DNA of 64,000 nucleotides, from assembly GCF_053078305.1 (NCBI RefSeq), contig NZ_CP166879.1; one strand, given 5' to 3'. This document shows positions 9,001 to 51,000 of this stretch, in pieces. Made by a program: the position numbers. Within the stretch, counting starts at the first letter, position 1. Each line of letters opens with the position of its first letter.

Positions 9001-12000
9001 TGAACGATACGATACCTCAATGGTTTATTGCGGTGATAACCTGAAGGGTGAGATTGAGGCTATTTATAATAGTCTTGAGAGGCGTCAGGTTTAGAGCAGG
9101 AATGGTGAGTAGCCATCTTATTGATCGTTTTCGAGCGTAAGATGGCTGAATGGAATGGCTATTATTGCACAGTCCTTAATTATAACATTCATACCGACAT
9201 GATTATCTTCTGTCCGGAAGAATCAGAGGCTGCGGTTTCAGACTGTCTGCTGGTACATTCCTTTCTCCGTTAAAAACCATAACGGGTTCATTATCTTCGT
9301 CTGTCAGCGGATTGAATGGCGGTATATTTTCAGTACGAATGCCGGTCAGCCACTGAAAAATACCTGCGAAATGACGGGCACTGATTTTCCTGCTGACGGA
9401 CTGATGAGACGTGATGTCACTGGCGGTAATAATCAGGGGAACGCTGTAGCCTCCTTGTATATGGCCATCATGATGAACAGGATTGGCACTATCGCTGACC
9501 GACAGCCCATGGTCAGAAAAGTAAAGCATGGCAAAATGACGGGAATGCCGGCGAAGGATACCATCAAGCTGACCGAGAAAGTTATCCAGTTTACTGATGC
9601 TGGCGAGGTAACAGGCAATCTTTCGGGGATACTGCTCCAGGTAATGATTCGGCCAGGAGTTAAGTAGGTCACACGGATTCGGATGAGAGCCAATCATGTG
9701 CAGGAAAATCACCTTCGGAGAGGATTTATCCGCCAGCGCACGTTCTGTTTCCTGTAACAACAACATGTCATCCGTTTTACGGGAAGCGAAGCTGCCTTTC
9801 TTGAGGAAAACGGTATGCTCCGCATCAGAAGCAATAACAGAGATGCGTGTGTCATGCTCTCCCAGTTTTCCCTGATTGGATATCCACCATGTGCTGTATC
9901 CTGCTTTTGCTGCCAGCGCCACCACGTTGTTGCCGGAATCAGGGTTCTGCTCATAGTCATAAATCAGTGTCCGGCTCAGGGAAGGTACGGTACTGGCTGC
10001 TGCCGATGTATAGCCGTCAATAAATAAACCGGGAGCCGTATTCAGCCACGGTGTGGTTGGTACGGGATAACCATATACCGACATATAATCCCTGCGCACA
10101 CTCTCACCAGTGACAATCACAATCGTGTCATACAACGGTGCTCCCGGCAGGATTTTCCAGCTGTCAGCCCTGTGCTGACTCAGTTGTTCATAACGCTGCA
10201 TTTCACGCAATGTGTCAGTTGTCCCCACAACGGTTCCTTTAACCATCCGCAACGGCCAGCTGTTTACAGAGCATAATACGAACAGCAGCAGTGCCAGCCA
10301 GTTACGGTGACCGCGGTGGTGTGTCCGCCAGAAAATAACCATGAACACCAGAATCGCGGCACTGACCAGAAAATGATAAACAGGAATCATCCCGGTAAAC
10401 TCCGCAGCCTCATCCGCCGTGGTCTGCAACAACGCGACAATAAAACTGTTGTTGATTTTACCGTACGTCATACCCGCAGGCGCATACAGTGCACAACAGA
10501 ACAGAAATAACAGAGCTGTAATGGATGTAAGGGTATTTCTGTGTGCAAGGAGCAGAAGAAGGAACAGCAGCAACACATTCCCGGTGGCATTCTTCTCAGT
10601 GTATCCGCATGCAATTGTGGTTATGACAGAAATAACAAAAAAGAATAAAAACAATAAAATCCGTGGTGTGTTGTCCGGACAAAACAGTTTTCTGATATTC
10701 ATCGGAGTATATCGGTAACATTATTATAAAGAGAATAAAATAATAAGAAAAACAGAAATATCCTGTAAAGCAGATAACAGACAACCCTGCAGTATAATTA
10801 CGTGATGGCAGTCTGGCGCGTAAGCCTGCATAAAACATTATTGTACTCTGTGTATCAACGGGTTACCCGGCCAGAACAGCCAGTACAAAAAATGCCCCCG
10901 CAGTGAGCATGGCAAGTTTTCCCCATACAATATGTTTCTCACCCCTCTTTTGTTTTCTTTTTCTCATATAAATGCTGGTGTTTACTCAGACGGAAGAGTA
11001 TTTCGTCTGTGCCAGTCTTCCGGATTATCCTGCTCATTTGTTCATGCATCCGGATACGTTTAATACAGAAGTCGATTTTAGCAACTGCCAGGTTTTTGTT
11101 GAGAGTCAGCGTGGCAGCATGATATGCATGCTGCCACAATATTAATGCCCGGGCATAATCATGATGTATTTCCGCATCTTCAGCTGCTGCCGTTATCTGC
11201 GCCCAGGACATCCGGCGCAGATACGGATAATGCAGTGTGACATCCGGGGAATGGTATGCCATTGAATACTCCTGTGGAGAATCATCATCTCCGGTTTATT
11301 CTCCTCCGGGGACGCAGACGCCCCGGAGAGCGAATTCTCCCACGTTTTCTTTTTTCAGCGCGCTGAAGGCATCCCGACAGGCTTTTTCAGTACGGAACTC
11401 CTGACTGTGAACGGCCAGTGTGGGTTGCCGGGCATCGCCGGAGGAGACATTAAAGGGGGATGAGAGCCAGAAAATCAGTATCCACATAGAACAGCCTTAT
11501 GATTTTGTGCGTTTGTATTTTTGCAGAATGCCGGGAGCCTGCAGGGGCGCTTCGTGAATTTCACGGATACATTCTGCGTCATGAAAATTTTCTCTGTACC
11601 GGGTTCATTCCGGCAGTATGTGGTGCATATGGAGCATTCTGTTCCGTGCGGCGCTGAGCTCATCAATATAGCGCCCCCGGAAAACGGGACCGTCATGCAT
11701 ATAGCACAGAGGGAACACTTCCACATTGTCACAATATTCCCGCCCCCACTCTTTTGTGACGGAGGCGTCATCGGTGTAAAACCATGTGTCGGGCATGCCG
11801 TTAGCCAGAAAGCAAATGTTCCATACATCGGGTACCGTAGACGTCTGTCATCATTCATACGGGTTATCTCATTCTATGGGCTGAATGCTGCTCAGAATCA
11901 GCCTGCTGAGACTGTCAGGGCTGCCGCAGCGACGACCGGTCGTTTTGCTGTAGCATTCCCGGCGTGTGTGGCACCAGGCGGCCGGTGTTTCATGAAGACG

Positions 12001-48000: not shown

Positions 48001-51000
48001 GTCTGTTGTAGTTTCAGTGCTTTTTTGATGCAAAAAATACTTGTTAACAATCAAAAAAGTAATATCTTCAAACAGGTAGCCTTATGATCTTCCGGTTTTC
48101 CTGACGCTATGAAGCGCAAAAGCCGGGAATTAAAGAGTTCCGCCCCGGCAGTAAGTACCCCACACTAATATCGCTCTTATCTGTAATGCTTTGTAGTCAG
48201 ACACGTTATGGCTGACATCAAAAACCCCGGATTTCCTCTGCCAACGGATAATCACCTTCCCCGGTGTTTTCGGTTGAACAGGTCTGGTTACTCCTGTCTG
48301 GTTATTAGCAAGATAATCGCTATAAACTGTGGAAAAATCATCGTACATAACCTGGTACTCAACATTACTCTTATTTTCCCTTGCCCGGAAGAATCAGAGG
48401 CGTGACTCAAGGCTGTCTGTCGGTACATTCCTCTCTCCGTTAAAAACCATAACAGGTTCATTATCTTCGTCTGTCAGTGGATTGAATGGCGGTATATTTT
48501 CTGTACGAATTCCGGTCAGCCACTGAAAAATACCCGCGAAATGACGGGCACTGATTTTTTTGTTGACGGACTGATGAGACGTTATGTCCCTGGCGGTAAT
48601 AATCAGGGGAACGCTGTAGCCCCCTTGTATATGGCCATCATGATGAACAGGATTAGCACTGTCGCTGACTGACAGTCCATGGTCAGAAAAGTAAAGCATG
48701 GCAAAATGACGTGAGTACCGGCGAAGGATACAGTAAGGGTGACCGGGAAAGTTATCCAGTTTACTGATGCTGACGAGGTAACAGACAATCTTTTGGGGAT
48801 AATGCAGCATTTCTCACAATGTGTCAGCCGTTCCTCCAACGCTTCCTTTAATCATCCGCAATGACCAACTCGCACTCTGAACCCTTCACTCTTCCTTGCT
48901 GAACATGTATCGTCACATGGTTGACCCGATACTGAATCACGCGCAATTTATTACAACAACCATTTGTTGGTAAGACCTAAACGAAAAAAGAATCAGGCGC
49001 CGGGGAATAGCAGCCCATCGCAGGCTACTGAGGTGCGACTCATGATCCTGTTCACCTGGCTCTGGACAAGTGACCGCTACACACGTCAGAACTGACAGAC
49101 GCGTTTCTGGCAATCCTGGTTAACCAACTGGTGATTTATGTTGATTTCTCGTCAGAAACACCCCATGAACACATCAAACTCCCTAAAACCAGAGAACAAG
49201 CCAATAAATGTCCCTGATTGCTCACAGCCTTTCTACAATGACAGCATCAATATTTTTATAGTTTATGACTATTATCACATAAATTTACCTGTCTATGAGT
49301 TATTTAATAAAATTAATTTTTAAAACAATGGAGGATATATGAGAAATATCTTTGCTTTATTAGTCACTGTAATATCCTGCACAACTGCCAGTGCGGCGAT
49401 GACAGAAACATGTCAGAAGTATTTCGATGAAACAGATAAGTTTTTATCGCAAATGAAAACAACCGGAGTAGCAGAAGAACAGATTAATTTAATGAAACAA
49501 CAATATGAACAATCAAAGAAACAATTCTCATCTCTGCCCGAGGCAAGCCAGGATGCTGCCTGTAAACAAGCCAGTGATGCGCTTAAACAATCAATGAACG
49601 CTGCCGGAATTAAATAATATAATAAAAGAAACAGTTATTGCATATTGATAACTGTTTCTTGATAGTCTTAATCAGGAAGACATAAATTGTGCTCCATATC
49701 ATAACTTTGTGGTTATTAGTGTCTTTTGTATCATGCACTATTGTTTATAGTATTCAGCACGTGAGAAAAAAGAGGCACCATCTTTTTATAGTATTTACAT
49801 TCATATTCACAAGTTTATTTTTTTCATGTAAGTCCCTACCCTGAAGGACCGGGTTTTACGGTGCGCCAAATAAGGTGTTGCCCCAGGTAGTGGATTGCTG
49901 TAACTGAATGTCAGAAACGTGCTCAAAACCATTCTGACAGCGTGGAAAAACTATTGCCTCAAATCAAAAATCGCGTTAAAAAACGTCTGAGTGTGTTTCC
50001 GGCGAGCAAAAGCCACATTCCGTGAATTGCCTCAGCAGAGCCCCGGAAATGTACTCAACCCGATAAAAATATTTGACGAAAATTCCGGTGATTTAAGCAA
50101 CTGACTGGCTCTTTTTCGGGGCTGTGGGGTATTTCCAGGGCCTCTCCTTTACCACTCTCGGGAAGGCCCTTTCCCTTCTTGTCGGTAATTTCACAAGTTG
50201 TCCCATACTTGCAAGATCGCGCATCAGCTCCGGTATACGTCCCGGGGAAGCGCCCTGCAATGTCATCAGCATTCTCATCACCATTCCGCATGATTCTGAG
50301 AAACTCAGTTGATTCGGCCAGTAACCTTTCAGATGTTCCGCCATTTTAATCATCTGATATCTCACCAGATTATAAGCCAGTAAGACACCCCACAGCTCTT
50401 GCTCCACAAGCTCCGGCTTTTTACTTCTCAGCGTCAGCCTGCTCAGTTGCATCGTCTGTTTTATCTCCCTGTATCCCAGTTCGATTTCCCGGCGATGACA
50501 GTACAAATCCGCCATTTCTCCTCCGGGGAAGCGCATGGCGTCCGTCATCGACGTCAGCAGATGGCAGACTTTTCCTTTGCACGTCACGGTCAGCAGGCGG
50601 GCTGTCACCTCATTTCCCAGTCCCGGCCACTTTTTTCGTGCCTGTGGGCTGGTTTTCAGTTTCACCAGATGATCGCCTTTACCCGGTTTTCTGATCTCTT
50701 CATATTGCGCTCCCTTTCTGAGAGGGATCATCCAGTGGCGGTGTTCTCCCGCCAGGCTCCAGGCATTTAACAGTCCCAGTGAGTAATAACCTTTATCCAT
50801 TAACGTCAGAGTGTTATCGCCAGTTTGTTCTATAAGTTGCTCAGCAAGCTCATTTTCGCTGTTCTTCATCGTGCCGAAGGCTGCAGCCGTCAGCAGATGG
50901 CTGGTCAGTTCCATCTGGCAGACCATTTTGACCTGCGGGTAGAGCGCCGGGTTCCCGGCATGTGTCTGACGGGGGAAGGCTGCATCGTTTTCTGGTGTAT

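Follow-up and report, generated by a model that had tools for sequence, protein, structure and literature searches.

The DNA analysed here, a stretch of 64,000 nucleotides from contig NZ_CP166879.1 of NCBI RefSeq assembly GCF_053078305.1 (hereafter, the window), carries a tRNA-Phe island with the ordinary mosaic architecture of the tRNA islands of Escherichia coli that produces Shiga toxin (STEC). The 3' end of a putative phosphoethanolamine-transferase gene, referred to as eptX, is found twice in it: once within an intact gene (copy A) and once as a dead fragment some 39 kb further on (copy B), with a block of virulence and metabolic genes between both copies. We consider it likely that these repeats are an intact and a decayed copy of an island-backbone gene left by patchwork assembly, and not the scar of a single delivery of cargo. 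The island head, the two copies and the sequence adjoining copy B are organized as follows:

3626-3667, plus strand: 3' part of tRNA-Phe, a 42-nt exact copy detected by an exact-suffix search with the tRNA-Phe of STEC005; att-type direct repeat between an integrative and conjugative element (ICE) and the P4-integrase island
3865-5127, plus strand: P4-type tyrosine integrase of the island head (NCBIfam; 94.3% to the pheV integrase region of STEC005)
5579-9094, plus strand: MkoC (Mokosh type II defence), helicase plus phospholipase D (PLD) nuclease, 1171 aa (PADLOC, 1687 bits, full length; Pfam AAA_11/AAA_12/PLDc_2)
9203-10702, minus strand: intact eptX, the gene of copy A, yjgX-family phosphoethanolamine transferase, 499 aa (open reading frame, ORF, and sulfatase domain)
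46227-48186, plus strand: segment with a major facilitator superfamily (MFS) transporter gene at 46567-47859 (92.5% over 1978 bp to 11244-13218 of the STEC005 pheV island, collinear)
48187-48340, minus strand: what is left (154 nt) of the 3' end of ept553, a second phosphoethanolamine-transferase gene, of the 553-aa type (78% to STEC005 13369-13526)
48382-48870, minus strand: copy B, dead eptX fragment made of the 3' 424 nt (48382-48805) and a 72-nt piece (48799-48870)

When the window was compared with itself by blastn, the alignment of copy A (9211-9635) and copy B (48382-48805) spanned 425 columns, with an identity of 90.8%, 38 mismatches, one 1-nt gap and an E value of 6e-168, and a second collinear piece (A 10190-10261, B 48799-48870) showed 80.6% identity over 72 columns. 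As both copies lie on the minus strand, they are direct repeats. A repeat search of the window placed the core of the repeat at 9240-9539 and 48410-48709, with 94% identity, and a MAFFT alignment of A and B agreed with both searches. Identity is uneven along the repeat: it is around 82% over the terminal 49 nt of the gene, rises to 94-95% in the middle and falls to 87% toward an internal deletion in B, and the longest perfect run spans 35 bp. Besides A and B, no other long repeats were detected in the 64-kb window by self-blastn or by the repeat search, and the latter revealed no inverted repeat in it that reaches 40 nt. The repeats consist of coding sequence of the transferase gene and are not tRNA-derived, and neither a transposase nor terminal inverted repeats accompany them.

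Copy B has no equivalent of A 9636-10189 (the internal deletion, of approximately 554 bp), is truncated at its 5' end by the loss of the equivalent of A 10262-10702 (the 5' 440 nt) and bears a 1-nt deletion close to the stop codon. An earlier note on this DNA had described direct repeats of roughly 90% identity between the 3' end of an intact 499-aa gene, which corresponds to ORF 9203-10702, and a fragment with a further internal deletion. The alignments bear out the homology, the coordinates and the deletion alike.

The product of eptX has a sulfatase/phosphoethanolamine-transferase domain (Pfam, NCBIfam). Its best equivalog match in NCBIfam was the CptA subfamily, with 106.6 bits vs. a cut-off of 404, and it fell far under the cut-offs of the EptA, EptB, and MCR models; it was not assigned to the EptA, EptB, CptA, or MCR groups, with which it is predicted to share only the sulfatase-type catalytic domain. 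In every comparator island that was opened, eptX lies on the strand opposite to a P4-type integrase gene and 0.3-4 kb from it. This was seen at pheV in STEC005, at selC in GF43 and 97-3250, at pheU in SI-NP020 and, as the yjgX pseudogene, at leuX in a K-12-like strain, and the pheV-type island of OkiPb01714 has the same int-helicase-eptX head as the window. Likewise, YjgX or YhbX was present in all the pheU, pheV, and selC insertions analysed by Saile et al. 2018 (PMC6174562). The window follows the same plan, with the tRNA-Phe 3' part followed by the integrase gene and, no more than a few kb from it, by eptX in the opposite orientation. The slot between integrase and eptX, taken here by MkoC, is occupied in other island heads by a tetratricopeptide repeat (TPR) protein or by nothing. 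When five segments of the window were compared by megablast with 5,426 complete E. coli genomes, the B region had matches in 2,976 of them, at up to five places per genome and roughly 4,500 places overall. This frequency and the integrase-adjacent position across tRNA sites indicate that eptX is a conserved backbone gene of the island family, with the variable cargo starting just past it.

Copies A and B were then aligned with six other alleles over the repeat block, in which intact eptX alleles are 88-98% identical among themselves. Copy A was closest to the pheU, pheV, and K-12 types (98.1, 96.7, and 95.8%, respectively), and copy B was nearest to the selC type, with 92.7% identity overall and 100% over the last 49 nt, which are only 82% identical to A. 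The divergence of 9% between A and B is ordinary for eptX, as the intact allele of STEC005 is itself only 90.1% identical to A. These affinities support the reading of A and B as alleles of different island lineages and not as a recent duplication, and on this point the earlier note, which had proposed an allelic copy from another lineage, was right. No allele closer to B was found among the 5,426 complete genomes (best, 91.5-92.7%), and a protein search with the 138-aa ORF of B yielded 48 candidates, all of them partial proteins of at most 92% identity bar near-self matches, with no full-length eptX among them.

Copy B also carries 17 private substitutions, distributed 2/7/8 over the codon positions and concentrated at nt 1071-1161 of the gene, where 13 of them lie, whereas the differences between intact alleles fall mainly on third positions (e.g., 2/2/14 and 6/5/31). 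This spread over all codon positions, unlike that of the intact alleles, points to decay after inactivation of B. Gene conversion between A and B was also considered and discarded, as the centre of B is equally near A and the selC type (94-95%), which gives no specific signal. No A-type tract stands out in B and no B-type tract in A, with the short length of the repeat limiting the power of the comparison.

The positions at which the cargo is joined to the backbone do not coincide with the repeats. On the 5' side of A, backbone homology stops at 10778-10801, and homology to the locus of proteolysis activity (LPA) begins at 10993; the right-hand joint is found at 48186/48187, around 200 bp past the stop codon of B. 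Thus, both joints are outside the repeats. STEC005 has an intact ept553 right after its MFS gene. Compared with this arrangement, the window lacks 159 bp between the imperfect 7-nt repeats TCTGTAA/TTCGTAA (window 48173-48200; STEC005 13206-13380), a gap that takes the region of the ept553 stop codon, with the window resuming in ept553 about four codons ahead of its stop. The ept553 remnant is in turn fused to the region downstream of copy B, and this same ept553'::eptX fusion is present in the GF43 and SI-NP020 heads. In addition, the 200 bp or so past the stop codon of B (48184-48384) are contiguous with B, at 91.5% identity, in the selC/pheU heads of GF43, 97-3250, and SI-NP020. The collinearity with MFS-ept553, minus 159 bp at a microhomology, ties the flank of B to the MFS segment itself, which is unlike a recombination endpoint. 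No att repeat or integrase was detected ahead of B with the tRNA-Phe suffix search.

To the right of B, the window continues with two features that belong to a recurring block:

49339-49617, plus strand: DUF5339 gene (Pfam)
50081-51502, minus strand: disrupted IS4 copy (97.8% to K-12 insG)

The segment from 48440 to 51369, comprising B, the DUF5339 gene and the disrupted IS4, was found at 99.0% identity over 2930 bp in two other assemblies (L026 and L027; 9104-12030 in each). There, the chromosomal context is unrelated, with a DprA/MarR' region on one side and an Ag43-like autotransporter on the other, and A, LPA, pdu, and MFS are all absent. The internal deletion and the 5' truncation of B are on its side away from the cargo, so the arrival of the cargo as proposed in the earlier note could not have made them. 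The idea that B is a remnant left by that event was therefore not sustained, its truncated form recurring without A or cargo. A direct repeat of 53 nt and 72% identity (49947-49999 and 51669-51721) flanks the disrupted IS4.

The block between both copies comprises the following features:

10993-23605: LPA-like virulence module (98.6% to LPA regions of many STEC)
12350-16441, minus strand: espI, encoding an Enterobacteriaceae serine protease autotransporter (SPATE) (NCBIfam)
17355-18095, minus strand: AraC/YdeO-like regulator (NCBIfam)
18924-21011, plus strand: iha (NCBIfam)
21378-23222, minus strand: btuB (NCBIfam)
23288-23481, minus strand: cobalamin riboswitch of btuB (Rfam)
23606-44146: foreign cob'/pdu module
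23799-24233, minus strand: cbiG'
24693-25523, minus strand: cbiA'
25531-25705, minus strand: cob-leader cobalamin riboswitch (Rfam)
25946-26863, minus strand: pocR
27067-27849, minus strand: pduF (this and the three preceding genes by NCBIfam PocR/MIP/CobB and Pfam)
28379-44146, plus strand: pduA-pduW (Pfam domains of called genes)
44147-46226: joint region with an IS66 TnpB remnant at 44681-45067 (Pfam TnpB_IS66)

Together with the MFS transporter, these are the SPATE EspI, iha, btuB, the cbiG'/cbiA' remnants, pocR, pduF, and pduA-W, and NCBIfam, Pfam, and Rfam agree with the inventory given in the earlier note (SPATE, iha, btuB paralog, cob remnants, pdu operon, and MFS transporter). PocR scored 529.9 bits vs. 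a cut-off of 500, and PduF is a channel of the major intrinsic protein (MIP) family (NCBIfam). A complete Pdu microcompartment operon is predicted, with pocR, pduF and pduABCDE-GH-JKLMNOPQSTUVW in the Salmonella order up to and including the acetate kinase PduW; among the Pfam domains of the called genes, there was no sign of pduX beyond it. The two cobalamin riboswitches lie 2 kb apart, one serving the island btuB paralog and the other being the orphaned leader of a truncated cob operon beside pocR.

The nucleotide identity of the pdu operon was 75-81% (about 76%) to E. coli, Salmonella, Klebsiella, Citrobacter, Raoultella, Phytobacter, and all the other sampled genera, and the matches in the collections searched (E. 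coli, plasmids, and species representatives), with 75-81% throughout, pointed to no donor genus. Despite these values, PduC is 98% identical at the protein level. In around 80 assemblies, the pdu operon was always linked to btuB-iha and the block had one fixed arrangement, and some related assemblies showed an extra insertion of an IS21 istB (Pfam IstB_IS21) in the joint region 44147-46226. The GC content ranged from 40.7 to 50.5% by segment. Judged by its sequence, the 39-kb block is not one unit, and at least four modules of different ancestry are joined in it at IS66 debris. The divergence from STEC005 is similar for the integrase (94.3%), A (92.8-93.7%), and the MFS segment (92.5%), which fits a single backbone int-eptX...MFS-ept553 with LPA and pdu inserted at IS66 sites. 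No description of an LPA-pdu island was found in the open-access literature.

Regarding the distribution of the region, E. coli strain 48 (JPQG01000001) has both copies, with some 38 kb between them, and B was found in strain 453 (MPGR01000001) and several other assemblies, in all cases by exact-protein match. Both strains are subAB2-3 STEC, isolated from roe deer and reindeer (PMC5323612). As these exact matches sit in E. coli STEC assemblies, the possibility that B represented a resident-species allele of a non-coli Escherichia was rejected. Among the 5,426 complete E. coli genomes, there was no empty site or case of A and B adjacent to each other, nor did any of them contain the arrangement in full, the joint of the MFS flank with B or that of B with DUF5339. 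Two metagenome scans with exact 26-27-mers, of which one represented the MFS-flank/ept553' junction and the other was specific to B, gave 0 matches, and no deletion product, with the block lost between A and B, was found.

The history that we consider most likely is as follows. Copy A would be the gene in working order within the head (int-MkoC-eptX) of the tRNA-Phe island as it now stands, and the MFS segment would be part of the same pheV-type backbone. LPA and pdu would have entered this backbone, int-MkoC-eptX(A)...MFS-ept553, in the interval from eptX to the MFS gene. To the right, there would have been, or would later have been joined, a head of selC-type ancestry from a different island, carrying the ept553'::eptX fusion, and this head may have lost its integrase and att repeat by a deletion ending at the MFS-ept553 region. 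Already linked to ept553', B would then have been deprived of its central part and of its 5' end, beside DUF5339/IS4, and gathered substitutions. Island heads always have the same orientation relative to the tRNA; hence, tandem accretion, or module shuffling with deletion, leaves the backbone copies as direct repeats.

Three observations weigh against this history. First, the B' block of the two assemblies mentioned above is a subset of that of the window (48440-51369), and it could be a secondary derivative of this island instead of a sign that B is older than it. Second, the count of substitutions private to B rests on seven comparator alleles and could be lowered by unsampled ones. Third, no intermediate genome was found, that is, one with an intact B-type allele beside the MFS gene or with a second integrase or att repeat before B, and for this reason, the order of events is our reconstruction.

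An alternative origin, which we regard as unlikely, is an old tandem dimer or integrated circle of a unit eptX-OMP-IS-MFS-ept553 (OMP, outer membrane protein gene; IS, insertion sequence), with LPA and pdu later replacing OMP-IS and the repeats as the ends of that unit. STEC005 is organized as int-eptX-OMP-IS'-MFS-ept553 and the selC/pheU heads as ept553'::eptX-OMP, and the order seen in the window, eptX_A...MFS-ept553'::eptX_B, is exactly what a dimer or permuted junction would give. However, A and B belong to different allele types, as the 82% identity of their 3' 49 nt indicates, and are not diverged copies of one sequence; the unmodified dimer appeared in no complete genome searched, and such a unit is not known to circularise or to have an excision function.

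Still less probable is the event favoured in the earlier note, a single homologous recombination into a resident island of B type that would have brought int-MkoC-eptX(A) together with the 38.7-kb block, entering on the left via backbone homology and ending just downstream of the resident eptX, with B as its remnant. The presence of two different alleles would agree with it, as would the island-head type of the downstream flank of B (48184-48384), which implies that B was once near an integrase, and replacement of the resident head would leave no att repeat or integrase ahead of B, as observed. Nevertheless, the truncations of B are on the far side from the cargo, the joint at 48186/48187 is collinear with MFS-ept553 of STEC005 except for the 159 bp lost at the microhomology, and the block is a composite whose parts show very different identities to their E. 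coli relatives. Furthermore, classic LPA has no eptX, and truncated B recurs elsewhere. Integration by a single Campbell-type crossover does not account for the region either, with the joints outside the repeats and the flank of B running collinearly into selC-type head sequence. With neither copy looking chimeric, the reading of the repeats as the mark of one homologous-recombination acquisition of the cargo is not supported.

More speculatively, eptX could act as a portable homology "landing pad", in such a way that circularised or tandem segments carrying its 3' end would enter any P4-integrase head by RecA-dependent crossover inside this conserved gene, and the eptX...MFS-ept553'::eptX skeleton would be the footprint of such a route for exchanging modules; we find this improbable enough to give it little weight. 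Finally, it is scarcely credible that the repeats delimit and serve to move the 39-kb block, whether as att-like sites, as the termini of a composite transposon or as the target of a recombinase, since only the geometry of direct repeats around accessory genes speaks for it, and against it stand 425-bp repeats that encode a sulfatase-family transferase, a sole tRNA-Phe-derived sequence at 3626-3667 with none near B, IS66 and IS4 remnants present as single copies inside or outside the block, the fixed arrangement in the approximately 80 assemblies and the finding of B without the block.

Beyond the island head and the recurring block, both ends of the window contain other elements:

1-3617, minus strand: right end of an ICE of the Salmonella pathogenicity island 7 (SPI-7) type (RefSeq annotation of 97% identical regions; Pfam)
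1-798, minus strand: dnaB-PI, partial, of the ICE
1146-2048, minus strand: 300-aa hypothetical protein of the ICE
2641-3528, minus strand: ParA of the ICE
51503-64000, minus strand: prophage tail-fibre remnant (DUF4376), SymE toxin gene and several orphan CdiA-CT/CdiI modules (Pfam)
57031-63933, minus strand: large cdiA gene (ORF of 2300 aa within the window; around 3100 aa in related assemblies)

The ICE joins the island through the partial tRNA-Phe at 3626-3667, which is direct evidence of two elements accreted in tandem at one tRNA-Phe gene. This sequence is the only tRNA-derived repeat in the window, and ARAGORN detected no complete tRNA in it. The same ICE-island junction is present in bovine and food STEC (OkiPb01714 and CFIAFB20190157). 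At the other end, the region 51503-64000 resembles the two-partner-secretion module of the adhesion and autoaggregation locus (LAA) and of the pathogenicity island (PAI) ICL3.

The comparison with known systems places the region in an already well characterised family, the tRNA islands of STEC, as a mosaic with the core of LPA, a modular build like that of LAA and a head like that of SE-PAI. LPA is the selC island of STEC negative for the enterocyte effacement locus (LEE) (AJ278144, cited in PMC5539235). The espI-AraC-iha-btuB genes and the cobalamin riboswitch of the window are collinear with it, at 98.6% over 10993-23605. However, classic LPA lies at selC, has no eptX after the integrase and runs on into LacI/phosphotransferase system (PTS) genes, whereas the module in the window follows a tRNA-Phe-type head int-MkoC-eptX and has cob'/pdu in place of the LacI/PTS genes after 23605. 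LAA is found at pheV in LEE-negative STEC (Montero et al. 2017, PMC5539235) and is, like the region analysed here, a mosaic tRNA-Phe island of IS66-bounded modules, one of them LPA-like (iha and a SPATE) and another of the two-partner-secretion/contact-dependent inhibition (CDI) type; internal direct repeats DR2-DR7 were reported in it (PMC5539235). In contrast to LAA, the window has no hes/tia after eptX and its SPATE is EspI, not LesP, and the paper on LAA makes no mention of the pdu module (pdu and propanediol, 0 occurrences; PMC5539235).

The head of KpLE2 in K-12 (leuX-intB-yjgX'-IS4) also has a yjgX-family pseudogene near a P4-type integrase with an IS4 close to it, and the yjgX of K-12 is the 95.8% match of A mentioned above. 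Nonetheless, the K-12 copy is frameshifted, truncated at its N-terminus, single, and located at leuX, and the sequence of the window from B to IS4 (with DUF5339) has no counterpart in K-12. A KpLE2-like context for B was rejected accordingly, since only B and IS4 match K-12 and the sequence between them does not. The subtilase-encoding pathogenicity island (SE-PAI) and the pheV-pheU-selC islands of STEC with int-eptX-tia heads (e.g., SI-NP020, OkiPb01714, and GIselC17584/1; PMC6174562) share the architecture of the head, in which the integrase, sometimes followed by a helicase or TPR gene, precedes an eptX of opposite orientation and the variable cargo. They differ in having one eptX followed by OMP genes of the tia/hes type, whereas the window has a dead second copy 39 kb on and no OMP gene after A. 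The gain and loss of modules has been described for GI-pheV (PMC11537424), and duplicated backbone fragments are a known by-product of island mosaics.

In conclusion, no function is apparent for the repeats. At 91% identity, and with no perfect run longer than 35 bp, they would be at best a weak substrate for RecA-mediated deletion; even so, such 425-bp repeats could permit the rare loss of the whole virulence and metabolic block, a modest consequence. Were the landing-pad idea true, eptX would allow islands at different tRNA sites to exchange cargo, including the orphan pdu operon coupled to a vitamin B12 receptor. The case documents the assembly of a tRNA-Phe island in STEC of wild ruminants, of the type of strains 48 and 453, and it calls for caution, as direct repeats around accessory genes in enterobacterial islands can be a leftover backbone gene and not an insertion mark. 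Biologically, the repeats are of less interest than the fact that a single pathogenicity island combines a B12 receptor with a complete foreign pdu operon: the location of the receptor gene directly beside a B12-dependent operon suggests that both may be functionally coupled on a virulence island.

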